Assembly: GCA_030605835.1 (NCBI GenBank)
Contig: JAUWHO010000042.1
Span: forward strand, 5,732-69,731
Source: Candidatus Zixiibacteriota bacterium
GTDB taxonomy: Bacteria > Zixibacteria > MSB-5A5 > DG-27
DNA: 64,000 nucleotides
Reading direction: 5' to 3'
The notes under the pieces were generated by a model. That model searched no databases. It was not told where the DNA came from and saw only the letters and a program-made list of their open reading frames with translations. Positions 20,921 to 41,846 of the stretch are shown piece after piece (the first letter of the stretch is position 1; each line of letters begins with the position of its first letter). The position numbers and the translations under genes are program-made.

Positions 20921-20997
20921 AGCTAGGGTGGGGGTTGAACCCCCACCCTCGAACGGGCAGGGGTACAACCCCTGCCCGAGCTTGAGCGAACCACAAT

Positions 20998-22596: not shown

Positions 22597-22615
22597 CGGA
22601 TAGATCCCGCCTCTC

Positions 22616-23903: not shown

Positions 23904-25484
23904 CTATCTCTTAATTTTTGCTAGATAAAGGACTCTTCTCAACTCTTCGATTTTCAAAATATGCGAGAAAAAGAGGAAAATCAACAGACCCGAAACCGAT
24001 ACCAGAAGGAATCTGAGCAGGGTGGCGATGAAACTCAGGCCCGGATCAAACAGGTTGACGACTCTCCCCGCGAAGATCAGAAACAGGGACATAAACAAGG
24101 AAGCCAGGAGGATCTTCACAACTGTCGGCACCAGGGAAGACCAATCGATCTTACCGATCTTTCGGTTGAAGAAATAGAGCAGGAGAGAGATATTGACCAG
24201 TGCCGCAACTGCCGTCGCCATCGCCAGCCCCGTGTAACTGAAAAACTGCATCAGGATGAGGCTCAAGATGATGTTGGAAGCGACCGCGATGGCCGCCACC
24301 ACCACCGGGGTTTTGGTGTTCTTGACGGCGTAAAAGACCTGAGAGGTGACTCGAACCGAGGCGTAGGCGAAAAGTCCGGCGCAATAGGGAATCAAAGCCC
24401 TGGTGGTGGCAAGGGTGTCAACTCCGGTGAATTCCCCTCGCTGATAGAGGAGTTTCAAAATCGGGGAGGCGAGGAATATGAGAAAGAGGCTGGAGGGAAT
24501 GGTCAAAAACAGAGCCAACTTCAAGGAATCGTAATAGGTGGAGAGCATCTTATCTCTATCTCCTAAAGCGGCCAACTCCGAAACCCTGGGCAAAGACACC
24601 GTCGCCACCGCCACCCCGAAGACCCCCAGCGGGAAGTGCATCAGACGATAGCTGTAGTTCAGGTAAGAGATACTTCCCTCCGGCAACAGAGAGGCTAAAA
24701 CAGTGTTAACGAAAATGTTGATCTGAGTCACTCCTACTCCGATCGCCGCCGGGGTCATGAGGGCGATGATTCTTCTCACCCCGGGGTCACGGAAATCCAG
24801 AATTGCTCTGTAAACGAAACCAACCCGCCTCAGAAAAGGCAGTTGCAATCCCAGCTGCCCCAGACCTCCGAGAAGCACTCCGATCGCCATCCCCACAATC
24901 GGGGGATCGAAGAAGGGGCAGATCAGAAATCCGGCCGCGATCATCCCCAGGTTGAACATCGTGGGGGCGATCGCTGGAGGACCGAAGCGGCCGAAGCAGT
25001 TCAGCGTTCCCATCACTGCCGCCGCCAACGCCACCAGGATCAGAAAGGGAAACATGATCCGGGCCATAAGAGTCGTCAACTCCGCCTGCCCGGGATGCTC
25101 CCCGAAGCCGGGTGCAATCAGTTTTACGATCAAGGGGGCCAAAACGATCCCTAAAAGGACCACCACACCGGTTGCGACCAGAAGACTGTTTAGCACCAGG
25201 TTGGTCAACCTCAAGGCGGACTCTTTTCCCCGTCTGGTCAGGTGTTCACTGAAGACCGGGACGTATGCTGACGATAAGGCTCCCTCGGCGAACAGATCCC
25301 TTAGGAGGTTGGGTATTCGGAAGGCAGCGAAAAAGGCGTCGGTATAGATTCCGGCGCCGAAAAGATAGGCGAAGACCTGTTCGCGGAGAAGCCCAAATAT
25401 CCTCGAGAGAAGAGTTCCACCGCCGACGGTCCCCACCTGTTTTGCAATGAGGTCCTCCCTGGCTTCCAGTTGATTCAAATCCAT
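23904..25484 (-). CDS. murJ: Lipid II flippase MurJ (MviN family)
   Basis: ORF track 526 aa; LSRIFGLLREQVFAYLFGAGIYTDAFFAAFRIPNLLRDLFAEGALSSAYVPVFS is the conserved MurJ N-terminus; 14-TM topology. Confidence 0.9.
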   Translation of the reverse strand: MDLNQLEAREDLIAKQVGTVGGGTLLSRIFGLLREQVFAYLFGAGIYTDAFFAAFRIPNLLRDLFAEGALSSAYVPVFSEHLTRRGKESALRLTNLVLNSLLVATGVVVLLGIVLAPLIVKLIAPGFGEHPGQAELTTLMARIMFPFLILVALAAAVMGTLNCFGRFGPPAIAPTMFNLGMIAAGFLICPFFDPPIVGMAIGVLLGGLGQLGLQLPFLRRVGFVYRAILDFRDPGVRRIIALMTPAAIGVGVTQINIFVNTVLASLLPEGSISYLNYSYRLMHFPLGVFGVAVATVSLPRVSELAALGDRDKMLSTYYDSLKLALFLTIPSSLFLIFLASPILKLLYQRGEFTGVDTLATTRALIPYCAGLFAYASVRVTSQVFYAVKNTKTPVVVAAIAVASNIILSLILMQFFSYTGLAMATAVAALVNISLLLYFFNRKIGKIDWSSLVPTVVKILLASLFMSLFLIFAGRVVNLFDPGLSFIATLLRFLLVSVSGLLIFLFFSHILKIEELRRVLYLAKIKR

Positions 25485-26409: not shown

Positions 26410-26787
26410 TCACCACCACAGCCTCTCCCCCACCAAAAGCAGCAGTCTCGGGTTACCCAAAATGATTTGTTTGACAACTTGGAACTTGTCCAATCCCGGG
26501 ACCGCCTTCCCACCAAGCATCCGATCCACCGCTCCGAGGATCTTTTCGAAGTCCTCGTCATCTGATTTTGCGTAAAGGTCTTGACAGAAACCGTATAGCT
26601 TTCTGTCCCTAGCCTTCCACTTCCGCCATCTCTCTGGATACTCGCCGAGATCGGCCCTCCCCTCCAGGAATTCATTTATCACCTCACCGGCGATCCTGCC
26701 GGAGAACAGGGCGTTACCGATTCCGGCATAGGTGAAGGGGTCAGCCAGGCGAATTGCATGACTTTCGAGTTTACTCTCTCGGATCCA
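26410..26787 (-). pseudogene. Truncated remnant of an FAD-dependent oxidoreductase (geranylgeranyl-reductase-like C-terminal fragment)
   Basis: Frame is open from the stop at 26788-26790 (inside the serpin 3' end) to 26410; ...LADPFTYAGIGNALFSGRIAGEVINEFLEG resembles the C-terminal motif of GGR-type flavoproteins, but the N-terminal FAD-binding part is absent. ORF track lists only the GTG-initiated 90 aa. Confidence 0.35.
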
Positions 26788-27973
26788 TTACGCGACCGAG
26801 AAACAGGATGCTGTTCGAACGGAGGTCACGAATCAGAAACAGAAACGGATGATCCGCCCGGAAAACGGGTTGTCGTGGCGGAGCCGCGGTGAGGCCCACC
26901 ACAACACCCGTGGCGGCGGCGGCTTCGGTGCCCTCCTCGTTGACCTCGACAAAGGCTTTGTGCAGGACCGCAGTAATGAAGAGATCCTTCTTGCCGCTCA
27001 TGCCGGAGAAATCGGCCTTGTCCTCATCGAAAGCATCGGTCATCCCCATGGACTTGAGAACCTCGGCCAGGCTGAACTCGGAGGTCATTTTGAATTTCGG
27101 CAGAGCGACGATGACCTCTTGCTTAGTGAGTCCCGTCAGCCACTTCGCCAGATTTTCGCGGTTGAGCAATTTCTCGAAATCTGTTATCGCATCCGTTTCC
27201 TTGGGAAGCAAAACAACCATCGACAAATCATCTCCGAGGTAGGGTATCTCCAGACCCTGTAAATGGTCGGTCTCCGTGTAGTTGAAATCCGCGGTCCGAT
27301 GCATCGTGGGGACCTGGACTTTCTCGCCGCTCACAAGCGTGAAGGCAGCAGGTCGGGTCATCTCCTCTTCAAACTGAGACTCCCAGAAACCCTTAAAGTA
27401 TATGGCGTTGGTCAAGACCAGCCGGGTCAGGCGATCCAGCACTCCCGGCTTGATAAGTTCCTTGATCTTGTCCTCGGTTTCCCTCTCAACCCAGGTGTTG
27501 ATTGTCTGACGAGCAGTTTCAGTCGACCCGATGAAGTCAAGCTCGCTGAGCCCGGCACCGTAATTCTCCTTGGTGAGGTTGAGGAATGTTTCGAGAAACT
27601 CATAACCTCTCTGACCCCACAAGGCATTAGCGACGCTAAGCTGGTAGCCTCGTTCCCCCTCTCCCGTCTCCAGTTGATCGAGCAGTTCCCGAAAGGCCGG
27701 ATGCAGACGTTTCTGCTCTAAGTCGAAATGCAAGACCTCGGCCATCTGTTTCTCGGTGCTGCCTCGAGCCCCGGCATAGGTCATCGCCAGTGCGGTCGAG
27801 ATGCTGTGAGGTGAGAAAAACAGGTTCCCATCTCTGTTCTTCAGCTCGGCGTATAGGTCGAGCGCAAACGCATTATTCCCCTGTACCATCATCTCCCCGT
27901 CGGCGGTCGCAGATCCAGTCGCCATTTGAGTGAGAGCCATGGAAACCAATAGGAACGTTTGAATTATTCCCAT
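26771..27973 (-). CDS. Serpin (serine protease inhibitor), probably secreted
   Basis: ORF track 400 aa; FSPHSISTALAMTYAGARG, NAIYFKGFWESQF, hinge/reactive-centre loop EEGTEAAAATGVV and C-terminal FRADHPFLFLIRD serpin signature; strong AAGGGAGG upstream of ATG. Confidence 0.9.
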   Translation of the reverse strand: MGIIQTFLLVSMALTQMATGSATADGEMMVQGNNAFALDLYAELKNRDGNLFFSPHSISTALAMTYAGARGSTEKQMAEVLHFDLEQKRLHPAFRELLDQLETGEGERGYQLSVANALWGQRGYEFLETFLNLTKENYGAGLSELDFIGSTETARQTINTWVERETEDKIKELIKPGVLDRLTRLVLTNAIYFKGFWESQFEEEMTRPAAFTLVSGEKVQVPTMHRTADFNYTETDHLQGLEIPYLGDDLSMVVLLPKETDAITDFEKLLNRENLAKWLTGLTKQEVIVALPKFKMTSEFSLAEVLKSMGMTDAFDEDKADFSGMSGKKDLFITAVLHKAFVEVNEEGTEAAAATGVVVGLTAAPPRQPVFRADHPFLFLIRDLRSNSILFLGRVMDPRE

Positions 27974-28217: not shown

Positions 28218-29345
28218 TCACTCCTCTAACATTTCAACATTCGCTCTGGGGATGATCGCTTTCTCGCCGTTCTCGAACTCCACCTCTAACACCCTGGCAC
28301 GGGATTCCGATTCCAGTTCCTGCAGTGGAGAGGGCAGATCCGAGACCTTCCCTAACCTGCCGAAATAGGGTTGCCGGATCGCCCGCACCGGACTGCCGAC
28401 CGTCAGTCCCGGATTTTCGGCTGCCTCCGCAGCCTCCGATTCAGAGATATCCCCCTTCAGGAGAACGACCACCTCCGGACGGATAACTCCGGCGCGTATT
28501 TGAGTGGCGCCGTTGATGCAGGCCAGTTGTCCCTCCCTGGATTTCAGGAGATTGAAGGTCCTCTCCGCCATCATCATTTCTCCGAAGCCCTCGGTAACCA
28601 CTAAGGTAACACCCAGCTCCTCGGAACCGGTGATGGCCACTCCCAAATCGTGGCCCAAAAAATCGCGCAGATCCTTGTCATCGAAACCACCGACAACCAC
28701 CCCTCTGGCTCCCACCGCTACCGCTTTGTTGATAGCCCCGGCGGTGACCAGGCTGCCTCCTACCACAACCTTCCCCCGGCAGCTCTCGTCAATCTCTTTG
28801 TCGGTGAGGACCGCTTTATTATCGGGGGAGACCATCTTCACCTCCCCGAAAGTCTCTCCACCGATCCCGAAGATCCCTTGGACAAAGGAGCCCCAGGTCT
28901 TGACCTCCACCCCCTCTTCGGGGAAGATCTCCGTCACCTCACCTCTGAGGTAGGCTTTGACCTCCACCGGCACCGGCGCACCCCTCAGAAGCACCTGTCC
29001 GGTGATAGAAGATATGTTCTCGACGCTTCCCGAGATCTTGGCTTTGCAGGTGGAGGTGAAAAGTCCGAAGAAGCTCTTGGTTTTGGCGATAACCTCCCCC
29101 TCTTCCACAGCCTCCCCCCTCTTTTTGGTCATACATTCGGGGACATCTTCTGGGGGAACTCCCAGAATATTGGCGACGTTCACCGGCTCGACATTCCCCG
29201 GGAGATGAGTCCGCGCCACCACCGTATCCGGCTCCACCTTATCGCCGACCTTAACAACCACTTCGCCCTTAAGCGGCAGAATCCTCCTCTTGGTAATCAG
29301 CATCCTATCAGTGACTTTCAGTCCCGGAGTGTATGCATGTGCCAT
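28218..29345 (-). CDS. Hypothetical protein (Gly/Val-rich; function unknown)
   Basis: ORF track 375 aa, ATG start; no family recognised by eye. Confidence 0.4.
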   Translation of the reverse strand: MAHAYTPGLKVTDRMLITKRRILPLKGEVVVKVGDKVEPDTVVARTHLPGNVEPVNVANILGVPPEDVPECMTKKRGEAVEEGEVIAKTKSFFGLFTSTCKAKISGSVENISSITGQVLLRGAPVPVEVKAYLRGEVTEIFPEEGVEVKTWGSFVQGIFGIGGETFGEVKMVSPDNKAVLTDKEIDESCRGKVVVGGSLVTAGAINKAVAVGARGVVVGGFDDKDLRDFLGHDLGVAITGSEELGVTLVVTEGFGEMMMAERTFNLLKSREGQLACINGATQIRAGVIRPEVVVLLKGDISESEAAEAAENPGLTVGSPVRAIRQPYFGRLGKVSDLPSPLQELESESRARVLEVEFENGEKAIIPRANVEMLEE

Positions 29346-29645
29346 AGGTTAACCTCGCCTATTCCAAATGATATCTGTCCTCCGCTTGCCTCTGCCCCTC
29401 GCCCACGTTTCCCCTTTACGATTTCGTCAAGAACTCCACAAGCAATTCGCAATTCATCTTCCTAATATAACGGCGAATCCTTCGCTGTCAACTGAAAGCT
29501 GACTCAGTAACGACAGCGCTTATGTCCTTGACATGAGTTCTGAGGAGCGGGTATATTTGAGATTTGGAGAGTATAGATGACGACCCTCTCGCTCAAGGGG
29601 ACCCGTTTTTGGCGGTGATCATTTGCAGAGGAGTGGAAGCCGAAG

Positions 29646-31328
29646 GTGCAGATTAGATCGGATCTCTTGCTGCCTCTTATCAGGATAGACCAGCATCGAA
29701 GACTGGATTTCCTGGATTTTTCGGGAAAACCGCTGACCTGGTTTGTAATCGGTCTTATCCTACATACCATCGGATTGATATATGTACATTTCTCCCCGGA
29801 TTCGATGCACTTCGTTGACCTCGGGCGGAACTTCGCCCGCGGCCTGGGGCTGGTCACATATAGCCAGAATCTCACTTCAGAATCGATTCCGGACTGGATA
29901 ACGTTCTTCCCACCCCTTTATCCGGTCCTGCTATCAATCGGATTCAAGCTTGGGATGGGAGCCGCCGGGGCGGCCCGCATAGTTTCCCTCACCAGTTTTG
30001 TGATCATTTTCCTATCGGTATATGCATTTGGAAGAAGACTGGTGTCACGAGAGCTTGGGGTGCTCGCCACGGCGTTGTGGGTGATATTGGTGAGCAGGTG
30101 GTCAATCTCCCTGTATGCATGGAGTGATCCACCCTTTGTTGCCTTTTCCCTTCTGTCACTTCTGGTGATGATGAAATCGCTCCAGAAGGAAGAGCATCTC
30201 GTCTATTACTTCGCCCTTGCAGGTCTCCTCAGCGGGCTTGCGGCCTCAACTCGTCTCATCGGCGGGACGTTACTTCCCTGCGGGATTTTGGCTGCCATTC
30301 TCAGTGCCTTTAGGTCTGACAGAGACCGCAAAAGACTATGGTGCGCTGTTAAACTCACCGCGGCGCTCTTGATCGGTTTCATTGTGCCAATGTCGACGTG
30401 GATGATATACAACCGCGTCATGGCCGGATACTTCATGAAAGCACTGAGGATCCCCTCGGAAACAAGTCTGTTCACAAACGTCGCCACCATGACAAAAGGT
30501 ATCTTTTTTGACCTCTGGCCGGTGTTTGCCCTAACGCTCATGACATACCTTTTGGTAGGTGGACTCTCGCTTAAAGGATTTCTAAGTTATTTCCCTGGAA
30601 AAGGCCGGCTGTCCGAAGGGCTCAGGAAGGATATGCTGCTGATAATGTCTTGCTGGATCATCTGTTACTGCGGTCTTCTAATCGTTATAGCCAGCATCGT
30701 GGACATTTATGACATGCGATATCTGAATACAAGACTATTCGTGCCGGTCTACCCATTTCTAATAGTCATCCTGTCGGCAGTGGCTTACCTCACCTACTCA
30801 TCACGATTCAAAGCCTCCCGAATTCCAAGAGTTATCTATACCACTTTTTTTCTGATCGCACTTCTTCTAGCGGGGAAACATCTCTCCTCAGAGATCAAGC
30901 TTTACAGAGAATTGGATTTCGGGAACTGCGAACTCTATGAATGGATAGGTGAGGAGACGAACCCAGACGATCTCTTCATCGGGCGCCGGGTCTGGCACGT
31001 CCGCTTTTACACCGGGCGACCGGTTTTGGGCTCAGGTTATCCGGAGATGCCCCCGTTGATTCCTGAAGCGGTGACGGGATTCTTGAAGAGATTTGAAAAA
31101 AACTACAAGGACGCCTATTTTGTTCTCAGACTGGAGCGGGGCGAGAAGTTCTCACTTGAAGATCTGGAGGCTTACCAGCGAGCGGGATTCGATTTGCACC
31201 GATGTGGGGTTTTCGACTCTTACGAGAAGGAAGTTGAAGTCTATCAAATTGTGAAAATCAGCCACGGGATAACTTCACCAAGCTCGTTGGAATCTCCGCA
31301 AACTCAAGCTGTCTTGAAAGGGAGTTAA
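29646..31328 (+). CDS. Membrane glycosyltransferase, GT39/GT83-like (ArnT/PMT family); start uncertain
   Basis: ORF track 560 aa (first codon GTG); polytopic N-terminal region with FPPLYPVLLSIGF motif and a large C-terminal soluble domain. Confidence 0.55.
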   Translation: MQIRSDLLLPLIRIDQHRRLDFLDFSGKPLTWFVIGLILHTIGLIYVHFSPDSMHFVDLGRNFARGLGLVTYSQNLTSESIPDWITFFPPLYPVLLSIGFKLGMGAAGAARIVSLTSFVIIFLSVYAFGRRLVSRELGVLATALWVILVSRWSISLYAWSDPPFVAFSLLSLLVMMKSLQKEEHLVYYFALAGLLSGLAASTRLIGGTLLPCGILAAILSAFRSDRDRKRLWCAVKLTAALLIGFIVPMSTWMIYNRVMAGYFMKALRIPSETSLFTNVATMTKGIFFDLWPVFALTLMTYLLVGGLSLKGFLSYFPGKGRLSEGLRKDMLLIMSCWIICYCGLLIVIASIVDIYDMRYLNTRLFVPVYPFLIVILSAVAYLTYSSRFKASRIPRVIYTTFFLIALLLAGKHLSSEIKLYRELDFGNCELYEWIGEETNPDDLFIGRRVWHVRFYTGRPVLGSGYPEMPPLIPEAVTGFLKRFEKNYKDAYFVLRLERGEKFSLEDLEAYQRAGFDLHRCGVFDSYEKEVEVYQIVKISHGITSPSSLESPQTQAVLKGS

Positions 31329-31352
31329 CAGATTCATTGATTAAGAGCTCTA

Positions 31353-32558
31353 TTAAACAGCCTTTGGTCTTATCCAAGCATATATCTTAAGCAGAGCCGC
31401 CGCCACCAGCATCATCTCCAGAGGGATAAGAGGCATCCGATAGCGGTATAACCCCAACATTAACACATGCACCACCGAGAAGTATCCACAAATAAGGAGG
31501 AAAATAGGCAGTCTCCGCCAGTAGAAGATAACGCCGAGGAGAAAAAAGAGGAAAATCAGAGTTTCGAAGAAAGCCCAACTCTTGATGAGGAGAGGTTTGG
31601 AGTCCGCAAGCTCCCCGAACTCGGTGGAATTCCACTCCCCCCAGAATTTCCCCATCCAGAAACGCCGGAACTTTTTGGGCCACAAACCCATAATTTGAAG
31701 GGGGTGTTCTTTAATATTTCTTAAAGCATCCTCAATTAGAACCTCATCCACTTCTATCTGGGTCTTTTGATCTTTGACCACCTCCCACATCGGGGGATAA
31801 CGTAAACCTACCCAGTTACCGTCGGCGGAGAGGTCGTTCCCGGGCCAGAGCACAAATCCCAGACCGATGTTGACCGGGATGAACCTGTGAAACTGCAGGT
31901 AATTTCTGAGAGTCCAGGGCGAGACCACCAAATAAGCCACCACAACGTACAGAATTGAAAAAGTGACAGTCTTTTTACTTATCCCCTTTGAAATTAGAAG
32001 ATAAATCCCGTAGAGGGGAGGCAAAAGTAAAAGGACGCTTTTCAACAAGGAGGCGATCCCGGTCACGACTCCGACCAAGACTGCACTAGTAAGCTTCAGA
32101 CTTTTAGCCGATGAAGAAAGCAAATAATAGATGACCACCAGGTAAAGCACGAGCATTATGTCGAGGTAAATAAAATGTTCATATATGGTGAAGGGAAGAT
32201 AAAAAACTATAAGGGCTAAACTTAAAAGAGCGGTTTTCTCATCAAAAATTCTTCTTGCGATTAAAAAAATTATATACCCACTTAAACAGGTCATCAACGA
32301 CTGCAGAATGAAAACTAGAATGTGTGTTTCTCCAAACAGGAGAAAGATCCCCGCCAGAAAGAAGGGATATATGGGCCCTCTGAAGATTGTCGGTTTGCCG
32401 TCGGCATCGATAAAGCCCTCCCCAGAAACCAAAGAGTTGGCTATATGGACGTAACCGACGGCATCGTCCTCGATGACGGTGGGAAAGAAGACGTGGAAGC
32501 CGAGCTTCAGGATAAAGCCCACCAACAATATGATTGCAACTTTGTGGTTAAACTTCAA
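31353..32558 (-). CDS. Membrane glycosyltransferase, GT39/GT83-like (ArnT/PMT family)
   Basis: ORF track 401 aa (TTG start); polytopic; ...ADGKPTIFRGPIYPFFLAGIFLLFG loop motif typical of polyprenyl-phosphate-sugar-dependent transferases. Confidence 0.6.
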   Translation of the reverse strand: MKFNHKVAIILLVGFILKLGFHVFFPTVIEDDAVGYVHIANSLVSGEGFIDADGKPTIFRGPIYPFFLAGIFLLFGETHILVFILQSLMTCLSGYIIFLIARRIFDEKTALLSLALIVFYLPFTIYEHFIYLDIMLVLYLVVIYYLLSSSAKSLKLTSAVLVGVVTGIASLLKSVLLLLPPLYGIYLLISKGISKKTVTFSILYVVVAYLVVSPWTLRNYLQFHRFIPVNIGLGFVLWPGNDLSADGNWVGLRYPPMWEVVKDQKTQIEVDEVLIEDALRNIKEHPLQIMGLWPKKFRRFWMGKFWGEWNSTEFGELADSKPLLIKSWAFFETLIFLFFLLGVIFYWRRLPIFLLICGYFSVVHVLMLGLYRYRMPLIPLEMMLVAAALLKIYAWIRPKAV

Positions 32559-32582
32559 GTCCCAAAGGATCCTTCGGAGAAG

Positions 32583-33302
32583 CTATTTCTTGCCCGCCGT
32601 TCGCCGGAGGCGACCTGCTCCTGGCAGAAGACGATATTTTATCAAGGTAAATATCGCCTTCAGACCATCACGCCAGTTGACTTTCTTTCCCTCTTTGAAG
32701 GAACGAGGGAAGTATTTGATCGGCACCTCCTCGATCCGGTAGCCAGCTCTCAACAGCTTGGCGGTGACTTCTGGTTCCCACTCGAAACCATCCCCCTCAA
32801 TCTTCAGCTTGCTTATGACCTCCCTCCTGAAGGCTTTGTAACAGGTGGGCTCATCCGTAAGTCTGGAGGAAAACAGCAGGTTTGCGATCTTTGTGATTAG
32901 AACTCCCCCCAAATAATATCTGAAGTAGGAATGTCGTTTCTCCTTTTCCAGGTTTCTAGAACCGTAGACGACCTCAACCCCATCGGCTTTGAATTTGTCC
33001 AATATGGGAATGAAGTCCTGAGGGTCGTACTCCAAATCGGCATCTTGAACGATCACCACCTCCCCGGTGGCAACCTTCAAGCCGGACCTAAAGGCTCTCC
33101 CCTTGCCGTAATTTCGGGGGTGATTTATCAGTTTGATGTTGTGCCGCTCGGTGAGCTCTCGAAGAATCTCGGGCGAACGGTCGCTGGAGCCATCGTTCAC
33201 CACAATTATCTCCTTCTCCACCGGAACCTGAGAGACCCTCAAAAGCAGCGCTTCGATCGTCTTCTCTTCGTTGTAACAGGGGATAATTACGGACAGCTTC
33301 AA
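32583..33302 (-). CDS. Glycosyltransferase family 2 (polyprenyl-phosphate sugar synthase-like, GtrB/DPM1-type)
   Basis: ORF track 239 aa; LSVIIPCYNEE, VVNDGSSD, VIVQDADLEY, VYGSR motifs of GT2 synthases; 24 bp upstream of the GT39-like gene. Confidence 0.85.
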   Translation of the reverse strand: MKLSVIIPCYNEEKTIEALLLRVSQVPVEKEIIVVNDGSSDRSPEILRELTERHNIKLINHPRNYGKGRAFRSGLKVATGEVVIVQDADLEYDPQDFIPILDKFKADGVEVVYGSRNLEKEKRHSYFRYYLGGVLITKIANLLFSSRLTDEPTCYKAFRREVISKLKIEGDGFEWEPEVTAKLLRAGYRIEEVPIKYFPRSFKEGKKVNWRDGLKAIFTLIKYRLLPGAGRLRRTAGKK

Positions 33303-33369: not shown

Positions 33370-35211
33370 TCAGAATTCCTCTAATGCCTCTTTGGGGTAG
33401 ACATCGAGCTCGGTCATCCACTCCTTGAGCTTTCCCACCCGTTCTGAGGCTTCCCTGGGGAGCTTGAAGGGGCGACCGCGCCCGTCTAAGACGATGCCCA
33501 CCACACCCCCGGAAAGCTCCAGTTCCCACTTACTCCCTTTGCCCCTTCCGATGTCGAAGCCCCTTTCGGGATCCAGCATCGCCTTGGCTTTCAAGGGCAG
33601 ATCCTTCTCATCGAACCCCAGGGGGATCAGTTTCATCTCCCCATATGTGAGCTTCCCCTCCGCTATCTGTCCGGTGGGCAACTCGATCCGATAGCCGAGC
33701 ATATCCTTCCCCTCCTTGCCCTCGCCGGCAGGTGCGACGCAGGTTCCCAGATGAATAAGGCAGTCCTTCCTGAAGACCTCCAGAGCCGCCTGAGGGTGGA
33801 CTTCAGAAAGTACTCCCAACTGCGGCATCATGAAGATCGAATCGACCGCCAGACGGGTGACCCCCTCCGGGAGGAAGCCGTCTATGAGCATCATCGCCGC
33901 CTGCTGGCGCCGGGGGGCGTGAGACAACACCCCTCCACTGCCGATCAGCATATCCAAAGACATCATATTCACCAGGGTCTGACCGGAGATTGTTTGCTCG
34001 AAAGCGTCGGCGATGGTTCTCTGTTGCTGCACGCCTTTGAGCATGGTGGCAAAGGATTTATGTTGGATGAAAGCCAACCTCAAAGCCTCCTTGGCAATGG
34101 CCTGTTCGAAGATCAACTCCTCCAACATCTGCGGGATGGTGGTAGGTCGAATCATCTTGTTTTTGATCCGATTTCTCAAATCCCGCTCATCCATGTCGAA
34201 GGGAACCCACCTCATCACGTTGGGAAGACCAGTCTCCGCGAAGACGTTGGAGACCGAGTAGCTCATCCCCAGATTGGCGGAGACGGTGCGATTGAATATA
34301 CCCTGGAAAACCGAGAAAATGTCGGTGGTGGCACCTCCGATATCCACTCCCACCACTTCGATCCCCTCCTCGTCGGCGATACGTTTCATGATCATTCCCA
34401 CCGCCCCCGGGGTGGGCATAATGGGAGCATCAGTCCAGGTCATCAGCTTGCTGTAGCCGGGAGCCTGGGCCATAACATGTTCCATGAAGAGATCGTGGAT
34501 CTTCTCCCTGGCAGGGAGGAGATTCTCTCGCTCCAGCACCGGGCGGATATTCTCGACTATGTCTAAGGAGACTTTTCCATCGAGGGTCTCTTTGATCGCT
34601 TTCCGGGCTTCAATGTTGCCGGCGTATATGACCGGCAGTTGGTATCCGCTTCCCAGGCGGGGTCTGGGATCTGCGGCGGAAACCAACTCCGCCAACTCCA
34701 CCACGTGGGTGGTGGTGCCGCCGTCAATCCCACCGGAGAGGAGAATCATGTCCGGCCTTAAGTGACGGATGCGTTCGATCTGCTGGTGAGGAAGTCTCTT
34801 GTCGTTGGAGGCGATAACGTCCATGACGATGGCGCCGGCACCCAGGGCGGCTCGCTCGGCGCTCTCGGCGGTCATGGAGCGAACCACTCCCGCCACCATC
34901 ATCTGAAGCCCTCCTCCGGCGGAGGAGGTCGAGATGTAGATATCGCTTCCTTCATTGCCATCAGTGGCTTCGAGAATCTTGCCTTTTTCGTCCAGGAGTT
35001 TTCTGCCGGAGAGCTCCTCCACCTCCCCGACGGCATTCAGAACCCCCATGGTGACATCCTCGAAGGGAGCTTCGACCGTTGTCGGAGCCTCCCCCCTGAC
35101 GATAAGACGGTATTCGCCGTCCCGTTTCTCGATCAGAATCGCCTTGGTGGTAGTGGAACCGCAATCGGTTGCCAGGATTACGTTAATATCTTCAGGTCTT
35201 ATCTCTTTCAC
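33370..35211 (-). CDS. ASKHA-superfamily ATPase (GlmL/MutL-like)
   Basis: ORF track 613 aa (GTG start); phosphate-1 motif ILATDCGSTTTKA and phosphate-2 motif GVDIGGATTDIFSV, indicating an actin/Hsp70-like ATPase fold; exact family not certain. Confidence 0.5.
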   Translation of the reverse strand: MKEIRPEDINVILATDCGSTTTKAILIEKRDGEYRLIVRGEAPTTVEAPFEDVTMGVLNAVGEVEELSGRKLLDEKGKILEATDGNEGSDIYISTSSAGGGLQMMVAGVVRSMTAESAERAALGAGAIVMDVIASNDKRLPHQQIERIRHLRPDMILLSGGIDGGTTTHVVELAELVSAADPRPRLGSGYQLPVIYAGNIEARKAIKETLDGKVSLDIVENIRPVLERENLLPAREKIHDLFMEHVMAQAPGYSKLMTWTDAPIMPTPGAVGMIMKRIADEEGIEVVGVDIGGATTDIFSVFQGIFNRTVSANLGMSYSVSNVFAETGLPNVMRWVPFDMDERDLRNRIKNKMIRPTTIPQMLEELIFEQAIAKEALRLAFIQHKSFATMLKGVQQQRTIADAFEQTISGQTLVNMMSLDMLIGSGGVLSHAPRRQQAAMMLIDGFLPEGVTRLAVDSIFMMPQLGVLSEVHPQAALEVFRKDCLIHLGTCVAPAGEGKEGKDMLGYRIELPTGQIAEGKLTYGEMKLIPLGFDEKDLPLKAKAMLDPERGFDIGRGKGSKWELELSGGVVGIVLDGRGRPFKLPREASERVGKLKEWMTELDVYPKEALEEF

Positions 35212-35387
35212 ATAATACCTCTGGAGAATATTTCCTTCATCTCAAGTTCAATTCATATGTCACCAGGCTCCGGGGCAGACTCACTCCGACAGCAAGGTTC
35301 ACTTGCTGAAAGTGACGCTCAGAAGGCACCCTCGCCGCCATCCTTCAAACCGAAAGCCGGCAACAGAACTCCCCTGCCACAAAAGCT

Positions 35388-36191
35388 CTATGGAAATCTC
35401 TTTCTGTTTTCGTTCTCCTCCTTCTCAGGAGCCGAACTCTCTTCGTCGCTTTTGCCCTCACCCTCCGCCGGCGAAGAAGACTCCTCCACCTTATCCCCCG
35501 GACTTCCAGTGAAAGTGTACGATTCTCGGGGAGTAGAAGGTCCTTGGCCTGGTGTTTGGGAACCGCCGCCTTCCGATGGTGAGTGATACGGCGAGTAAGT
35601 CCTCTCCCCGCCTGGCCGACTTGGCGAACCGTAATCGTTGCGGTAAGTGCGAGTGTAATCCTGTTCCTCCGCTCGGCGCGGTCTGCTTCTGATCTTCTCG
35701 AAGTGGCCTCGCATCTCTCGCAGATTTACGAAGTGGTGTCCGACCGCGTTTCTCAACTCCAGGGCGGTCATGGTGTCGACCGCGACCACCATCACCTTCT
35801 TGCCCCGGCTCCGCAAGAGCTCCACTGCTCGTTCGAAGTCGCCATCCCCGGAAAAAAGTATGGCGGTATCATAATGGTTGATGGTGTTGAAGATATCGAT
35901 GACGATTTCGACGTCGAGGTTGGATTTGACCACCTCCCGGCCACTCTTGCGGTCCCACATGCTTTTTATCTTTTTGATGCGGACGGTGAAGCCCATCCTC
36001 ATCAAGGCTTTGAAGAAATCCTCCCTCTCGGAACCGAAGTCGCCATCGTAACCGGTGTAATAAAAAGCATTAACTAATTCCTTCCCTTTTGTGAAATACT
36101 GCAGGATCTTGTTGTACTCGAAATGCCATCCTAACTCTCTTTGAGAATAGAACATGTTGGAGCCGTCGACGAATATTGACACTTTCTCCAT
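35388..36191 (-). CDS. NYN-domain (LabA-like, PIN-like) protein with disordered Ser/Pro/Gly/Glu-rich tail
   Basis: ORF track 267 aa; IFVDGSNMFYSQ...AILFSGDGDFERAVELLRSRGKKVMVVA matches the NYN/LabA core; strong GGAGGT SD. Confidence 0.8.
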   Translation of the reverse strand: MEKVSIFVDGSNMFYSQRELGWHFEYNKILQYFTKGKELVNAFYYTGYDGDFGSEREDFFKALMRMGFTVRIKKIKSMWDRKSGREVVKSNLDVEIVIDIFNTINHYDTAILFSGDGDFERAVELLRSRGKKVMVVAVDTMTALELRNAVGHHFVNLREMRGHFEKIRSRPRRAEEQDYTRTYRNDYGSPSRPGGERTYSPYHSPSEGGGSQTPGQGPSTPRESYTFTGSPGDKVEESSSPAEGEGKSDEESSAPEKEENENRKRFP

Positions 36192-36327
36192 TTTACCTTA
36201 CCTCCGGTAACTCAGACATTAGCTTCGCGGGTTTCATAGTTTTTCAGTTTGTCTTTTATGATCTCTCCTTTCTTATCTCTCTCTGATTGTGATGAGTGAT
36301 TTCAGAAATCACCTGGATTTCCAGAGG

Positions 36328-36735
36328 TCACTCCATTCCCAGGAGCCTCTTGAATGAGAAACTCCTCTTTTCAGTTTTCCTCAAAAGCTTCGCCTCCTTC
36401 TTTCTCTTTTTTTCCTCCTCGTAGGCTTCGGCGTCGAACTTCTCAATCCTCTGGAGCAGTCTCTCGACATTCTCCCTTCTCTCCATCATCTGTTGAAACT
36501 CGCTATACTCCGGAAGGTTGAACAGAGCGTGCACGAACGGCTCGAAGAAGACCATCACCTGGCTGCCGAGGTAACTTAAAGGCTTAACCGATTCCAAGAA
36601 CATGATCGCCGGCACCGCCATCTTCCACTGCACCACCTTCTTAGAGATCTTGTCTAAGATTTCCTCCTGCTTGGGGCTGAGCGTCTCCTCTATCTCTTTT
36701 TGGTCGCTGCCGAAGAAGAACGGTCCTTTAAGCAT
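36328..36735 (-). CDS. Hypothetical protein
   Basis: ORF track 135 aa; ATG with AAAGAGG upstream; 8-bp overlap with the upstream ORF. Confidence 0.4.
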   Translation of the reverse strand: MLKGPFFFGSDQKEIEETLSPKQEEILDKISKKVVQWKMAVPAIMFLESVKPLSYLGSQVMVFFEPFVHALFNLPEYSEFQQMMERRENVERLLQRIEKFDAEAYEEEKKRKKEAKLLRKTEKRSFSFKRLLGME

Positions 36736-37138
36736 CCTCTTTTTCCATTTTCTCTTTTATAAAGCTCAAAACCGCCTCTTTGTTCCCTTCGAAGCGTATG
36801 TAAACCCCCCGGAACGATTCCAGCCGGGAGGGACGCGGGAAGGGACTTAAGAGCACCCCGTTCTTGTCGGGGTAATAACTTCGATAGGAAGTCCAGCTTT
36901 TCTCCATAGATCTGAAGACATAACTGACCTTCACATTGTCCTCGGTCAACTCATACCTGGTTGGGAGATAGAACGGAGACAGCGAACCCAACATTATGAC
37001 GACCGACAGCACTAAAAAAAGCACACTGTTTGTGATAATATATACAACTGCCCACAGAATCACAAGAAAAACTGAGACCAAAACCGACTTGCGCAGGTTC
37101 CTTTTGACCGGATGCGAGACCCAGCTTAGCTTCTCCAC
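36728..37138 (-). CDS. Hypothetical membrane protein
   Basis: ORF track 136 aa; two predicted TM helices (VLVSVFLVILWAVVYIITNSVLFLVLSVVIMLG). Confidence 0.4.
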   Translation of the reverse strand: MEKLSWVSHPVKRNLRKSVLVSVFLVILWAVVYIITNSVLFLVLSVVIMLGSLSPFYLPTRYELTEDNVKVSYVFRSMEKSWTSYRSYYPDKNGVLLSPFPRPSRLESFRGVYIRFEGNKEAVLSFIKEKMEKEDA

Positions 37139-37141
37139 CGG

Positions 37142-37432
37142 TTATTTCTCCGCCGAGGGCCTGCCCGAGGCAGACGAGGGTGGATCCGACTCCGTCGGAG
37201 ATCCCCTCTGTTTCTCGAACTCCTTCTCGTCCTTGTATCTCTCCTGTCTGACCTTGTTTAAGAGTTCCCAGAACTCCTTGGGGTCGATGATCTTTTTTTC
37301 GACCAGGAGACGAACCAGAGTCTCCTGAGCCAGATTGGTGGATAAGACCAACTCCTCGTAGCTCACCTCTCTTACGGTGTCCCCCATAACTACTTTGAGG
37401 AGTGGCCTTTTACCTTGAGTTTCAGCTGACAT
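37142..37432 (-). CDS. Hypothetical protein
   Basis: ORF track 96 aa; ATG with AAGGAAG upstream; first of three tightly packed small ORFs. Confidence 0.4.
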   Translation of the reverse strand: MSAETQGKRPLLKVVMGDTVREVSYEELVLSTNLAQETLVRLLVEKKIIDPKEFWELLNKVRQERYKDEKEFEKQRGSPTESDPPSSASGRPSAEK

Positions 37433-37576: not shown

Positions 37577-39481
37577 TCACTTCAACTTCTGCCAGCTATT
37601 TCCCTGGATTCGATATATCCTCATCCCCTGGTTTTCCCCGGTGCTCTTGTCGAAGCGAATCTTGCCGGTGACGCCGCTGTAACTGGAGGTTTTCTTCAGA
37701 TATTCGTTCACCTTCTCCGGAATGACGGCTCCGGATGCAAATGCCTTCAAGAGGAGCTTGGCACAATCGTACGACAGAGCCGCCACCCAGTCGGGTGATT
37801 CCCCATATTTCTCCCGGTACTTCTTAGAAAAAGAGAACCACCGGGAATCGTCCTGGTCCTCAATGAAATGACAACAGAAAACGGCATCCTGAACATAATC
37901 CCTCGAAGGCCTCAAAACCTCCAGATCGCTGAACCCCTCCAGACCCAAGAGTTGAGTCTTGATGATTGAGAAGGCCACCTGGGGGGTGATGAGGTTCAAA
38001 TCCTCCGGATATCCCAGAATGAAAAGTCCCCTCAAATAGACCGGCCACTCCTCCGGCGGGAGAGTATCTCCTCTATCGTCGAAGAAGATGGAGCTGTCCA
38101 GCTCTCCCTTTTCCCACATGGTTTGGGTTTTGTCTATCAGGATTTCGCGAATCTGGCCCAACGGTTCTTTGAAGTCGGTCTGTCCGGGGGCATAGTAGAG
38201 CTCTTTGAGAACTTTCCCTCCTGACTTCTCTACCTCCTCCTTGAAGGCCGTCGACACCTTAGGTCCGTGGGAATCATCGGGAACCAGAGTAGCAAACTCC
38301 TTGATCTTGAGAGAGCGAACCGCATAGGAGGCCAGCCCTCTGGCCATACTCTCAGAGCTAGGGGAAAGCTGGTAGACGTAATCGCTGAGGCCGGCGATGC
38401 CGGCCTCGGAAGCGGTAGGAGTGATGACCGGGAAACGGTGACAGTCGGCGTTGACGGCGACTCCCACCGCGGTCTCGCTCCTCAAAGGTCCGATGATCGC
38501 CGCCACCTCGTCCTCCTGCACCAAAGCTCTCATGGCAAGGGCGGCAGCGACCGCCTCTCCTTTGGTATCCTCGATTGCCAATTCAACCTGCCCAAGCTCA
38601 GGATTGGACTTATCTGCAAGCGCCAGTTTTATCCCCCTGACCATGCTGTTGCCGTAGTCGGCGAAGGGTCCTGAAAGCGGTGCCAACACTCCCATAACCA
38701 GGTGAGTTGTGACCGTCTTTCTTGCGACCTCTAACAGCTTTTCCGCCTGCGGCCCTTTGACGTCCCCCGGAGAGAGGACCAAAAAGCGCTCCAGGCTCCT
38801 TATCGCCCGCCGCGATTGCCCGGCCTCCAACTCTCTTCTACCCTTGTGGAAGAAAACCTCCCCGAGAAGCTTGCCTCGATGTTGCCAGCTTAACCTCTCC
38901 AACTCCTCCAGAGTCAGATGTTTTTCCAAAAGGGGCAGAAACGATTGACAGGCACGGTCACGGTCACTCCTTCTTTCGGCCAGCTCGAAGCCCCGCAGGT
39001 AGTTCAGGGTGGACTCTAAGGGTTCGCCTCTCAGGAAGGCGACATCACCCAGGAGAATGTAAGCCACCCCGCGATAGGATGATTGGGGGAATTGTTCCAG
39101 CAACCCCTTCAATCCCCTCTCGGCGGAGTCGTACTTCCCCAACCGCAAGCGGCATTTGGAGGCCATTATCATAAAGCCGGTATAATGCCTGTCGGTGGGG
39201 AAAGTCGCCAGGAGATACTCAAATCTCTCCAGGGCGGGCTGATATTCTCCGTCGCCATATAGCTCCCGGGCTTGCTTCAAAACCTCCTTTGAGCTCTCAC
39301 CCAGGTAGTCCGAAAGGCCCTGGGAAGAACAGAGATTAAAGGTGAGAAGGCTGATTACAACTGAGATAAGAAGTGAGGCCAACCTGTGGGCGTGGGGCCT
39401 TGAACTTCTCAATTCATACATCTTTTGACATATCCGTGAGGCCACCGACCTTCCGCAGCCCTTTTTAGTTTTCGGGCTCAA
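37577..39481 (-). CDS. TPR-repeat plus type-I periplasmic-binding-fold protein (LpoA-like architecture); start uncertain
   Basis: ORF track 634 aa; N-terminal hydrophobic anchor, TPR-like helical region, C-terminal domain resembling Leu/Ile/Val-binding proteins. Alternative ATG at 39421. Confidence 0.55.
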   Translation of the reverse strand: MSPKTKKGCGRSVASRICQKMYELRSSRPHAHRLASLLISVVISLLTFNLCSSQGLSDYLGESSKEVLKQARELYGDGEYQPALERFEYLLATFPTDRHYTGFMIMASKCRLRLGKYDSAERGLKGLLEQFPQSSYRGVAYILLGDVAFLRGEPLESTLNYLRGFELAERRSDRDRACQSFLPLLEKHLTLEELERLSWQHRGKLLGEVFFHKGRRELEAGQSRRAIRSLERFLVLSPGDVKGPQAEKLLEVARKTVTTHLVMGVLAPLSGPFADYGNSMVRGIKLALADKSNPELGQVELAIEDTKGEAVAAALAMRALVQEDEVAAIIGPLRSETAVGVAVNADCHRFPVITPTASEAGIAGLSDYVYQLSPSSESMARGLASYAVRSLKIKEFATLVPDDSHGPKVSTAFKEEVEKSGGKVLKELYYAPGQTDFKEPLGQIREILIDKTQTMWEKGELDSSIFFDDRGDTLPPEEWPVYLRGLFILGYPEDLNLITPQVAFSIIKTQLLGLEGFSDLEVLRPSRDYVQDAVFCCHFIEDQDDSRWFSFSKKYREKYGESPDWVAALSYDCAKLLLKAFASGAVIPEKVNEYLKKTSSYSGVTGKIRFDKSTGENQGMRIYRIQGNSWQKLK

Positions 39482-39506: not shown

Positions 39507-40001
39507 CTAAAGAGAATATTTCCCAAAATCCTCGGGATTGATCCTTCTCAATCTGTCTCGCAAGCTTTCGGAATCCGGCAGACCGCTTTTCTCTTTCTCT
39601 TCCTTGGATAGGCTGAAGAGGGCGTCGTTGACATAAATGGGGGCCTTGGTCTTCAGAGCCACCGCCAGAGAATCGGAGGGTCTGGCGTCGATATCGAAGA
39701 CCTTGCTGTTGATCTCCAGATATATTTTGGCGTAGAAGGTGGAGTCTACTAAATCAGTGACCTCTATCTTCTTGATTTTCCCCCCCATGGTCTTAACCAT
39801 GGTGGCAATGAGGTCGTGGGTCAGAGGTCTTTTGGAGGCTAACCCGGAAAGCTCCATGCTTATCGCCCAGGCCTCGAAGTGTCCGATCCAGATGGGCAGA
39901 AGTTTGTCGGAGTTCACCGGGGAGAGTATCACCACCGGGGAGTTGGTGGAGACATCCAGCGCCAGCCCGTTTATTTGGGCTTTGACCATTTTCTTTTTCA
40001 T
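39507..40001 (-). CDS. Bifunctional nuclease family protein (DUF151)
   Basis: ORF track 164 aa; LPIWIGHFEAWAI...LTHDLIATM core resembles the DUF151 nuclease domain. Confidence 0.7.
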   Translation of the reverse strand: MKKKMVKAQINGLALDVSTNSPVVILSPVNSDKLLPIWIGHFEAWAISMELSGLASKRPLTHDLIATMVKTMGGKIKKIEVTDLVDSTFYAKIYLEINSKVFDIDARPSDSLAVALKTKAPIYVNDALFSLSKEEKEKSGLPDSESLRDRLRRINPEDFGKYSL

Positions 40002-40117: not shown

Positions 40118-40579
40118 CTAAGCCTCCCTTTCAGGTGGCTTTTTGACCACCCACACCTTCAGATTGGCGATCACCTCCGATTCTACCTTCACCCCAACGG
40201 TGTAAACCCCTAAAGCTTTGAGGGGCTCCTCCAGAAGGATTCGTCGCCGGTCGATCTTAAAGCCCTTCTCGGTCAAAAGCTCGGCGATGGTGGAGGAGGT
40301 CACCGACCCGAAGACCTTATCCTCCTCTCCCACCAACACTTCCGCGGTGCAGGAGATCTTCTCCAACTTTTCTTTGATCCTCTCGGCCTCTCGTTTCTTC
40401 TTATTATCGTGCAGCCTCTTCTGTTTTTTCACCTCCTCGATGGCCCGGATGGTTCCTCTTTTGGCCTCGATCGCCAGATTCCGCGGCAGAAGATAATTCC
40501 TCCCGTACCCATCTTTGACGGTGATGACGTCGCCGCAGTTGCCCAGGGTGGCAATGTCCTCTTTCAGTATCACTTTCAT
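40118..40579 (-). CDS. rplI: 50S ribosomal protein L9
   Basis: ORF track 153 aa; MKVILKEDIATLGNCGDVITVKDGYGRNYLLPRNLA matches the bL9 N-domain; GAGGAAAA SD. Confidence 0.95.
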   Translation of the reverse strand: MKVILKEDIATLGNCGDVITVKDGYGRNYLLPRNLAIEAKRGTIRAIEEVKKQKRLHDNKKKREAERIKEKLEKISCTAEVLVGEEDKVFGSVTSSTIAELLTEKGFKIDRRRILLEEPLKALGVYTVGVKVESEVIANLKVWVVKKPPEREA

Positions 40580-40600: not shown

Positions 40601-41527
40601 TCAGGCCGAAACCGCGACTCCACTCTTCAGTTTCCTGAAATCGAACCAGGAGTCGAAAAGTCCCAGCACTCCCAGCAGAACTAAAGATAGCACCTGCCCC
40701 AGAAATATCAAGAGGTAAAAAAGGAGTTTGAGGAGTCTGGATACATTCAATTTCACCAGAAAGAACTCCGCCACCGAAAAACCCACGAAGAAATACAGAC
40801 CGGCGCTGAAAGCCAGAAGGTTGTGACCCACTATCCTCATGCCGGGGTTGTGCAAGAGCGAAAAGATCGCCCCTAACAGGACCATCCCCAGGAAGTAGTC
40901 GCTCAACCTCCAGCGGGAGAAGTGGGGGAGGGCCGGGATATGGTAGCCCACCTTTGACCCCAATTTGCAGGAGAGGAAATAGGCCACGGTCAGATTGAAG
41001 AGGACCGATAGCAACAAAAGCGAGGGCAAAAGTTCCACCAGTATCCTCCCGAAGTTCTTAAGATCGGAGGTCAGCCCCTCCAGCAACTCTTGACTCTGCC
41101 CCATCTCTCTGGCCTGTAGTGCGAATTCGTCCACCCACGCCTCTATCGTCAAGGAAAGAGAGGTGGAGACCTCGGAATAAGCGGTCATAAACAGCGCGAC
41201 TAAAACCAGCACCGGGATAAGCCCCCAGAAAATGGCTCGAAATCCTCCCCCGCGGCTGCGCACCAGATACCCAATCAGAAGCGCCGGCAAGCATATCGAC
41301 AGAAGAAACGTGGTCGACTGAGGCAGACCCTGAAATAGCATGAGTTCGAGGGCCACAAAACCACCCACACCCACTGCCAGTGTCGGCCGAAAATTGGCGG
41401 CCAGAAAAATGAGCGCGGCCGCGCTCAGGATCCCCCATACGTAATTTAGGAACAGTAGATCGCACAGAGGACCGTAGAGGACAACCACCGCGGCTGCCAC
41501 AAGAGCGATTCGGCTCTTAGAACCCAA
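40601..41527 (-). CDS. DUF2232-family membrane protein (YybS-like)
   Basis: ORF track 308 aa, polytopic; TTG start with AAGGAGG upstream; sits between rpsR and rplI as yybS does in Firmicutes. Confidence 0.5.
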   Translation of the reverse strand: MGSKSRIALVAAAVVVLYGPLCDLLFLNYVWGILSAAALIFLAANFRPTLAVGVGGFVALELMLFQGLPQSTTFLLSICLPALLIGYLVRSRGGGFRAIFWGLIPVLVLVALFMTAYSEVSTSLSLTIEAWVDEFALQAREMGQSQELLEGLTSDLKNFGRILVELLPSLLLLSVLFNLTVAYFLSCKLGSKVGYHIPALPHFSRWRLSDYFLGMVLLGAIFSLLHNPGMRIVGHNLLAFSAGLYFFVGFSVAEFFLVKLNVSRLLKLLFYLLIFLGQVLSLVLLGVLGLFDSWFDFRKLKSGVAVSA

Positions 41528-41564: not shown

Positions 41565-41846
41565 TTACCGAAAGCTCTCGGAGGTGTAAGGCAGAAGCCC
41601 CAGGTGTCGTCCGCGTTTGATGGCGACCGTCAACTGCCTCTGATGACGGGCGCAGCTGCCGGAAATCCGCCGCGGAATGATCTTGCCGCGATCAGATACA
41701 AACCTCCGGATCATCCTCTCGTCTTTGTAATCGATAACGTCGATCTTGTTCTCGCAGAAGCGACAGATCTTTCTCCTCCTGTAGTCGACACTGAAGGAGC
41801 TTTTTCTCTGCTTTCTCGTCGTTCTATCCGTTCTCGGCCTTCTCAT
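41565..41846 (-). CDS. rpsR: 30S ribosomal protein S18
   Basis: ORF track 93 aa; ...[60 protein letters not shown] matches bS18. Confidence 0.95.

Follow-up and report, generated by a model that had tools for sequence, protein, structure and literature searches.

Do the genes packed together on a Zixibacteria contig form one system, and if so, which of them belong to it? The question arises in a 64,000-nucleotide stretch of Candidatus Zixiibacteriota DNA (contig JAUWHO010000042.1, positions 5,732 to 69,731; hereafter the window). An earlier note, made from the letters alone, had grouped five of its genes: a 613-aa ATPase of the actin/Hsp70 (ASKHA) fold, a NYN-domain protein and three small proteins of 96, 136 and 135 amino acids (here p96, p136 and p135), lying ahead of glycosyltransferase genes and together matching no named system. 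All five open reading frames (ORFs) are present on the minus strand (Table 1), with p96 and p136 separated by 3 nt and p136 and p135 overlapping by 8 nt, as had been described. The grouping holds for the ATPase and the small proteins. It does not hold for the NYN gene, and the most constant partner of the ATPase, a 375-aa protein that we call p375, lies outside the boundaries that had been drawn. We propose that the region contains most of an ancient, uncharacterised, membrane-associated ATPase–p375 module that is broken here by two lineage-specific insertions, and we give this reading an even chance of being right. The composition, conservation, linkage and insertion history of the module are observed directly in the loci compared.

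Linkage of the module across genomes

Relatives of the ATPase were sought in one genome per species. At least 584 were found, and the 80 best were taken with 10-kb flanks; the 39 of these loci with at least 8 kb on both sides are referred to as well-flanked. Labels among the fetched loci include Zixibacteria, Ignavibacteria, Calditrichaeota, GN15, Gemmatimonadota, Eisenbacteria, Fermentibacteria, Fibrobacterota, Sumerlaeota, Cloacimonadota, Edwardsbacteria, WOR-3, Poribacteria, CSSED10-310 and one Deltaproteobacteria metagenome-assembled genome (MAG). A reciprocal scan of metagenome contigs was seeded with a 9-sequence alignment of p135 (a 25-sequence alignment was too divergent for this purpose), and its 80 best loci are all Zixibacteria-like. 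About 165 ATPase-seeded and p135-seeded loci were compared in total.

The conserved core is p136–p135–long GlmL-type ATPase–p375, to which p96 is added in Zixibacteria and a few other lineages. p136 lies directly upstream of p135 in 67 of 67 p135-seeded loci, and the ATPase follows downstream, co-directionally, in 24 of the 28 that have at least 5.9 kb of flank. Outside loci labelled as Zixibacteria, p136 and p135 directly precede the ATPase in about 20 cases, and the ATPase and the small genes adjoin each other in at least 15 such loci; the labels under which both occur there are Gemmatimonadota, Eisenbacteria, Fibrobacterota, Sumerlaeota, Deltaproteobacteria and CSSED10-310, and p135 alone was detected in this position in Fermentibacteria, Cloacimonadota, Edwardsbacteria and WOR-3 loci. 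On the other side of the ATPase, p375 lies within 2.2 kb downstream in 50 of the 56 loci with enough sequence, usually after a gap of 12-150 bp. Gene coupling is tight in places, with gaps or overlaps of 3-22 nt in L086 and L087 and 14 nt between the ATPase and p375 in L083. In L083 and L084 the order is changed and p136/p135 come after p375. That the genes stay linked when their order changes favours a functional connection over mere inheritance.

A long ATPase subfamily distinct from GlmL

The ATPase matches the Pfam MutL family (PF13941) with 434.4 bits (6e-130; gathering threshold 27 bits) over the entire profile (1-450 of 450), as the earlier domain call had it, and is ~150 aa longer than that profile. 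It fails each of the narrower tests: 232.5 bits against a cut-off of 475 for the GlmL equivalog (NCBIfam NF040745), 226.2 against 600 for Or-4 (NF040744) and 166.7 against 204.05 for the GlmL-family model TIGR01319. Judged by these profiles, it is a distinct long subfamily of the MutL family and not GlmL, in a gene context that was previously undescribed. Nevertheless, the NCBI and Joint Genome Institute (JGI) names for its relatives are ‘glutamate mutase L’ and ‘methylaspartate mutase’. Those names are unsupported given scores below the cut-offs and the lack of B12 mutase neighbours: no B12-binding or mutase gene occurs in the Pfam-annotated neighbourhoods or among the recurrent neighbour families of 85 loci, a search that covered the flanks only.

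The predicted ATPase carries the phosphate-1 (DxGxTxxK), phosphate-2 (DxGGxTxD) and adenosine (GxGG) motifs expected of the ASKHA fold, here as ATDCGSTTTK, VGVDIGGATTD and GSGGvLSHAP, which are at least 97% conserved among 74 sequences. Mean column identity in that alignment is 0.86 for the ASKHA core and 0.63 for the C-terminal extension (residues 485-613). The window protein is 67-94% identical (median 77%) to 73 homologues under at least 10 phylum labels, and the 80 best fetched relatives are 66-83% identical to it. The best matches belong to candidate division Zixibacteria, the closest named one (94%) being from bin DG_27; look-up of the exact window sequence returned no record. In L058, L059 and L063 identity to the window is 69-70% for the ATPase, 55-57% for p375 and 44-46% for ribosomal protein L9. 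An ATPase so much more similar than L9 from the same loci points to constraint and not to recent transfer. Sequence and profile searches of the PDB gave no significant match for the ATPase, p375, p136 or p135.

The partner protein p375

p375 is nearly fixed in length (371-378 aa in nearly all loci with a complete ORF). A profile search of 1.84 billion cluster representatives (50% identity) recovered 3,480 clusters at E ≤ 1e-3, of which 1,057 passed E ≤ 1e-30. Two single chains, P0316 (995 aa) and P0411 (1003 aa), each comprise the ATPase and p375, and the loss of the p375 start methionine in P0316 favours a real fusion. An apparent fusion in L083 was rejected: a TAG codon closes the ATPase gene, the GTG start of p375 comes 14 nt later, and the apparent single ORF is a read-through in another frame.

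An AlphaFold2 (AF2) model of p375 built from 25 close homologues was unusable (predicted local distance difference test score, pLDDT, 60.6), and 50 more diverse sequences raised the pLDDT to 84.3. The model predicts three domains: an N-terminal barrel-sandwich hybrid resembling those of NqrA, RnfC and biotin carrier proteins; a middle domain of swivelling β/β/α type, similar in the model to rifampin phosphotransferase, Enzyme I, the pyruvate kinase C-terminal domain, RraA and HMG/CHA aldolase; and a C-terminal KOW/SH3-like barrel. Foldseek comparison of the model with the PDB found no whole-chain match at E ≤ 1e-3. The likeness to the N-terminal region of NqrA and RnfC is at the domain level only, with matches below the Pfam cut-offs and a root-mean-square deviation of ~10 Å over the whole chain; unlike those proteins, p375 lacks Fe-S and flavin motifs and ends in the KOW-like barrel. 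Scores against Pfam Biotin_lipoyl are 14.4-17.8 bits (cut-off 22.1), Lys 90 is common without being invariant, and an EAMKM-type motif is lacking. The family also has no invariant His or Cys, so it does not fit the phosphohistidine swivel of phosphoenolpyruvate-utilising enzymes and is not a phospho-histidine carrier.

Public sources call p375 hypothetical or, wrongly, NusG. The JGI name ‘transcription antitermination factor NusG’ stands on P0160, P0161, P0176, P0179 and other homologues, evidently on account of the C-terminal KOW-like barrel. A precomputed PF25984 match is attached to some homologues, and a Pfam scan of P0160 did not reproduce it.

The small proteins

Homologues with shared motifs in the same gene order occur in many genomes, which shows that the three small ORFs are genuine genes, not chance reading frames. 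Their identities to the window proteins are 23-60% (p136), 28-72% (p135) and 37-61% (p96). None of the three has a Pfam or NCBIfam family, and Pfam searched at E ≤ 10 gave only noise. The earlier statement that one of them is embedded in the membrane fits p136, in which a single long hydrophobic stretch (residues 14-60) is consistent with a two-helix hairpin; a Kyte-Doolittle hydropathy scan found no classical transmembrane segment in p96 or p135. The motifs FFLPTxYxL and GVLLSPFxxPSRLExFRG mark p136, and PAIxFLESxKPLxFxGSQ…FFxP marks the invariant amphipathic segment of p135. This segment and the p136 hairpin point to a membrane-associated module, to judge from the protein sequences. The conserved part of p96 is LxLSNNLAQEALVxLLxKK..P.E, followed by a variable tail. 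Most occurrences of p96 are in Zixibacteria, and it is also present in L058, L059 and L074; it lies no more than 10 kb from the ATPase in 5 of the 39 well-flanked loci, and most p135-seeded Zixibacteria loci have it.

Two lineage-specific insertions

In the window, p135 is followed after 136 nt by the gene for the NYN protein, which ends 176 nt before the ATPase. The protein matches PF01936 over residues 3-155 with 110.9 bits (cut-off 24.2; 1e-31), so that the domain assignment made earlier stands. Visual inspection shows that the acidic motifs FVDGSN, LDVEIVID and SGDGDF of a predicted nuclease are retained, and the protein looks like an intact LabA-like nuclease. It shares the whole NYN domain with that group and differs in its long low-complexity tail, rich in Ser, Pro, Gly and Glu, and in being a stand-alone cargo gene.

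The distance from the end of p135 to the start of the ATPase is at most 450 bp, without a gene between, in 31 of 68 loci. The other 37 have extra genes in this gap, nearly all co-directional and from at least 32 unrelated families: DJ-1/PfpI (17 loci), PG_binding with peptidase M15 (8), NYN (6), cation efflux (CDF; 6), an MNT-type nucleotidyltransferase with HepT toxin, HNH, PEMT, IS200-like Y1_Tnp and SIR2_2. So many unrelated occupants indicate a variable insertion site in which NYN is one of many alternatives, and in which DJ-1, the M15 peptidase and the CDF transporter represent cargo of a housekeeping type. The NYN gene is present in none of the 39 well-flanked loci, in 3 of the 80 p135-seeded loci and in 6 close-relative loci overall; among the ATPase-seeded loci only the close relatives L004, L005 and L007 have it. 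It is lineage-specific cargo and not, as had been supposed, a component of the module. Conserved neighbourhood unites the ATPase with p135 and p136, and leaves NYN to close relatives; beyond a domain-level PADLOC match, no tie between NYN and the adjoining genes was seen.

The second insertion is a glycosyltransferase island between the ATPase and p375. Its GT2 and PMT_2/GT39-like genes follow the ATPase on the same strand, as had been noted, but they are an insertion that separates the ATPase from p375 and not something downstream of the whole. GT2 occupies this position in 0 of 39 well-flanked loci and only in the close relatives L004, L005, L007, L090 and L155; the order is ATPase–GT2–SDR–p375 in DG_27 and ATPase–GT2–p375 in L007. 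A sigma-70-like match at 11 of 12 positions on each strand of the 300-bp divergent region between p375 and the second PMT_2 gene suggests that p375 may have its own promoter in the window. A scan of the region for promoters and terminators found 10 promoter-like sites against 7.3 ± 2.4 in shuffled sequence, which is not above expectation.

DUF6754 cassettes and other recurrent neighbours

What, then, accompanies the module elsewhere? Within 10 kb of the ATPase or p375, 24 of the 39 well-flanked loci carry one to three tandem copies of a four-gene cassette, either downstream of ATPase–p375 or upstream and divergent. The first cassette protein (~410 aa) has a signal peptide and DUF6754 (PF20539) between two transmembrane helices; an FN3-like periplasmic domain was recognised in it by eye only, with no Pfam match. 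The others, without annotation, are a polytopic protein of ~213 aa, a protein of ~289 aa with terminal transmembrane helices and a polytopic protein of ~219 aa. By hhalign, the four families are unrelated to each other and to p135, p136 and p375. On one contig ~10 kb separates the ATPase from p375, and there the cassettes remain beside p375. The recurrent neighbour families are all membrane or secreted proteins, and no soluble enzyme recurs as a partner.

A possible mode of action

We suggest that the ATPase and p375 would form an obligate cytoplasmic complex, with the two-helix p136 and amphipathic p135 tethering it at the inner membrane. By binding and hydrolysing ATP, the ASKHA core might perform conformational work, by analogy with GlmL/DdrA/EutA-type and Hsp70-type ATPases, with no phospho-histidine relay involved. 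The four-protein DUF6754 membrane cassettes, which flank the module in most other genomes, are its likely clients or effectors. More tentatively, and with less than an even chance as a joint claim, the module may be the cytoplasmic engine of an ancient undescribed membrane machine of the FCB group (Fibrobacterota–Chlorobiota–Bacteroidota) and allied phyla, with a role in transport or in some process of the envelope. A single ATPase–p375 pair would then act for several paralogous DUF6754 complexes, and in Ignavibacteria-type genomes a secreted anchored protein would replace p136 and p135. The proposed logic is that of MceG or the energising module of energy-coupling factor (ECF) transporters, where one shared module serves several membrane modules.

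Several observations weigh against the proposed module and its working. p135 and p136 are absent within 10 kb in ~60% of the well-flanked ATPase loci. In Ignavibacteria/Calditrichota-type loci a secreted protein of ~250 aa lies between the ATPase and p375, with neither small protein nearby; it has a signal peptide, the motif NYVSFxGxFYIxYPDDWxQVDY and, at the C terminus, an anchor helix bearing a basic tail, and it and p135 are mutually exclusive per locus (both, 0; secreted protein only, 26; p135 only, 32). No DUF6754 cassette is present in the 64-kb window (tblastn with two cassette sets). The single chains P0316 and P0411 may be artefacts of gene calling or assembly. The phylum names are submitters’ labels on MAGs, and some may be wrong. 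The mechanism is argued by analogy, and an enzyme active site could also account for the many invariant Gly-rich motifs of p375.

Alternative explanations

This last point leads to the main rival, unlikely in our judgement, in which the pair acts as a soluble, ATP-dependent metabolic enzyme like those of the hydantoinase/oxoprolinase/acetone-carboxylase type: the ASKHA protein would use ATP to activate a small substrate, p375 would catalyse or guide a second step, and the membrane proteins would transport that substrate. Conservation at the level seen is typical of central enzymes, the invariant loops of p375 (QGIFGIGGE, TEGFG and NGATQIRAGVIRPE) would suit catalysis, and there is a weak Pfam match to Hydantoinase_A at the phosphate-2 motif of the ATPase. 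The neighbourhood offers hints as well: gcvT-gcvH-gcvPA-gcvPB directly before the module with an adjoining lipoate-protein ligase, and a sodium:solute symporter adjoining it in L001. However, the glycine-cleavage neighbourhood is confined to 6-8 loci of one group (Eisenbacteria or unlabelled) and is probably lineage synteny, though a functional hint is conceivable given the lipoyl/biotinyl-like domain predicted in p375. Further points against an enzyme are the lack of an invariant His or Cys that could carry a phospho-histidine, the restriction of recurrent neighbours to membrane and secreted proteins, and the absence of any riboswitch, leader or metabolite-sensing RNA from the window region and six distant loci (Rfam).

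It is improbable that the ATPase is an actin-like filament protein anchored in the membrane by p136 and p135, in the manner of FtsA, MreB–RodZ or PilM–PilN. The fold, intact nucleotide motifs, actin-like level of conservation and small membrane partners encoded immediately upstream would all be in keeping with a filament. In PilM–PilN, FtsA–FtsN and GspL–GspM an actin-fold protein docks to a small bitopic membrane protein, and the module is like them in placing an ASKHA-fold gene beside genes for small membrane proteins that could tether the ATPase; no sequence relationship to these pairs was detected. Known bacterial actins lack any equivalent of the obligate 375-aa partner, and the GlmL/hydantoinase branch, to which the ATPase belongs, is not known to polymerise.

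A role for the ATPase in reactivating a coenzyme-B12-dependent mutase, as a chaperone of GlmL/MutL type, is in our view very improbable. The MutL match across the whole ASKHA core (434 bits), the NCBI and JGI names and the swivelling-type domain predicted in p375 speak for this, since known B12-enzyme reactivases pair an Hsp70-like ATPase with a swiveling domain and exchange binding partners on ATP hydrolysis (PMC7674605). With GlmL/MutL and Or-4 the window protein shares an ASKHA fold that aligns end to end (residues 12-484) with its nucleotide motifs intact, but it scores about half their cut-offs or less, falls below TIGR01319, exceeds the profile length by ~150 aa and has a C-terminal extension of ~130 aa. 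Also unlike GlmL, it lacks B12 mutase neighbours and is coupled to p375, p136, p135 and DUF6754 cassettes. The combination of an ASKHA ATPase with a swivelling-type α/β domain, sometimes in one chain here, recalls the α subunit of the diol/glycerol dehydratase reactivases (DdrA/GdrA type) by resemblance only; in the module the swivelling-type domain belongs to a separate p375 that also has barrel-sandwich and KOW-like domains, and no dehydratase or mutase gene lies nearby.

Least probable of all is the system first imagined, a NYN RNase, an ATPase and small membrane proteins acting as one unit in defence or a toxin-like role, for although the genes are co-directional and tightly packed in the window and 5 close-relative loci, the NYN protein alone matches PADLOC-DB 2.0 (profiles NYN, of which only the C-terminal half, positions 149-304 of 310, is matched, and HEC-09, both at the domain level) and the gap elsewhere sometimes holds MNT/HepT, SIR2-like or HNH genes, the rarity of NYN at these loci, the frequent abutment of p135 and the ATPase, the absence of PADLOC matches for the ATPase, p96, p136, p135 and p375, and an ATPase conserved like a housekeeping gene and unlike defence genes all stand against it.

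Implications

The judgement that no named system is involved was right for the ATPase and the small proteins, according to Pfam, NCBIfam, PADLOC and the literature; a literature search on DUF6754, GlmL-like ATPases and related topics found nothing relevant. Domain searches placed the ATPase in MutL and the 267-aa protein in NYN, and left the three small proteins unmatched. The module is widespread, highly constrained and unstudied, and the p375 family is without a name. Establishing the function of the ATPase–p375 pair would annotate thousands of genes, mostly from uncultured lineages (Zixibacteria, Ignavibacteria, Calditrichota, Eisenbacteria, Fibrobacterota, Cloacimonadota and others), and would probably explain the arrays of DUF6754 cassettes too. 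The annotation ‘methylaspartate mutase’ is unsuitable for metabolic reconstructions of these phyla. Operon-level analysis of conservation was what told true components from cargo in the variable gap.

Table 1. Features of the window and example features of related loci. Positions without a locus name are those of the window.
Feature	Position	Strand	Basis and remarks
p96, 96-aa small soluble protein, accessory first gene	37142-37432	-	ORF; homologues in the same position
p136, 136-aa membrane protein	36728-37138	-	ORF; N-terminal hydrophobic hairpin and conserved cytoplasmic domain
p135, 135-aa small helical protein	36328-36735	-	ORF; invariant amphipathic segment, Lys/Glu-rich tail
NYN (LabA-like, PIN-like nuclease) protein, predicted, 267 aa	35388-36191	-	PF01936; low-complexity tail
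GlmL/MutL-family ASKHA ATPase, long form, 613 aa	33370-35211	-	PF13941; core 12-484, C-terminal extension 485-613
Inserted glycosyltransferase island	29646-33302	mixed	Pfam; separates ATPase from p375
GT2	32583-33302	-	Pfam
PMT_2/GT39-like GT-C enzyme	31353-32558	-	Pfam
Second PMT_2 gene	29646-31328	+	Pfam; divergent from p375
Sigma-70-like match TTGACA-16-TATATT, 11/12	29464-29491	-	Upstream of p375; consensus only
Mirror sigma-70-like match, 11/12	29528-29557	+	Upstream of divergent PMT_2; consensus only
p375, 375 aa, constant ATPase partner	28218-29345	-	Linkage across loci; three predicted domains
~250-aa secreted protein	L014, L021, L023, L026, L029-L056, L079 (e.g. L041:6304-7086)		
DUF6754 cassette arrays, examples	L003:13497-21845; L087:9267-16310; L088:9402-17128		Paralogous tandem copies, many phylum labels
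Glycine-cleavage (gcv)/lipoate-ligase neighbourhood	L086:723-5821; L087:990-5296 and 16380-17125		
Gap cargo, examples from Zixibacteria loci L089-L168	L108:8423-9848; L119:6381-7514; L111:7178-7768		

Other genes near the module

A Tol-Pal-like set was recognised by inspection upstream of the ATPase in some Ignavibacteria-type loci (L014:3999-9217, minus strand, and 13-19 other loci depending on the gene). It comprises TolQ/ExbB-, ExbD/TolR- and TolA/TonB-like genes, a ~440-aa protein and lipoproteins.

In the window, p96 is preceded by a minus-strand gene (37577-39481) for a 634-aa protein with N-terminal TPR/BamD-like repeats and a C-terminal Peripla_BP_6 domain, which recalls LpoA-type lipoproteins. 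It is found in this position in many Zixibacteria loci, and in 4 of the 39 well-flanked loci overall. Further upstream, the rpsF–rpsR–rplI cluster includes a 308-aa polytopic protein (40601-41527, minus strand) between rpsR (41565-41846) and rplI (40118-40579), to whose DG_27 homologue DUF2232 is assigned, and rplI is followed by a gene with a BFN (bifunctional nuclease) domain (39507-40001).

Directly downstream of p375 is a full-length serpin (26771-27973, minus strand; PF00079, 7e-130), and DG_27 has two in tandem (L004:14924-17334). Serpins are uncommon in bacteria. Beyond it, murJ (23904-25484) lies upstream of an ordinary tripartite efflux cluster (19237-23899, minus strand), which consists of a MacB-type ABC permease (MacB_PCD and FtsX), an HlyD-family adaptor and an outer-membrane efflux protein.

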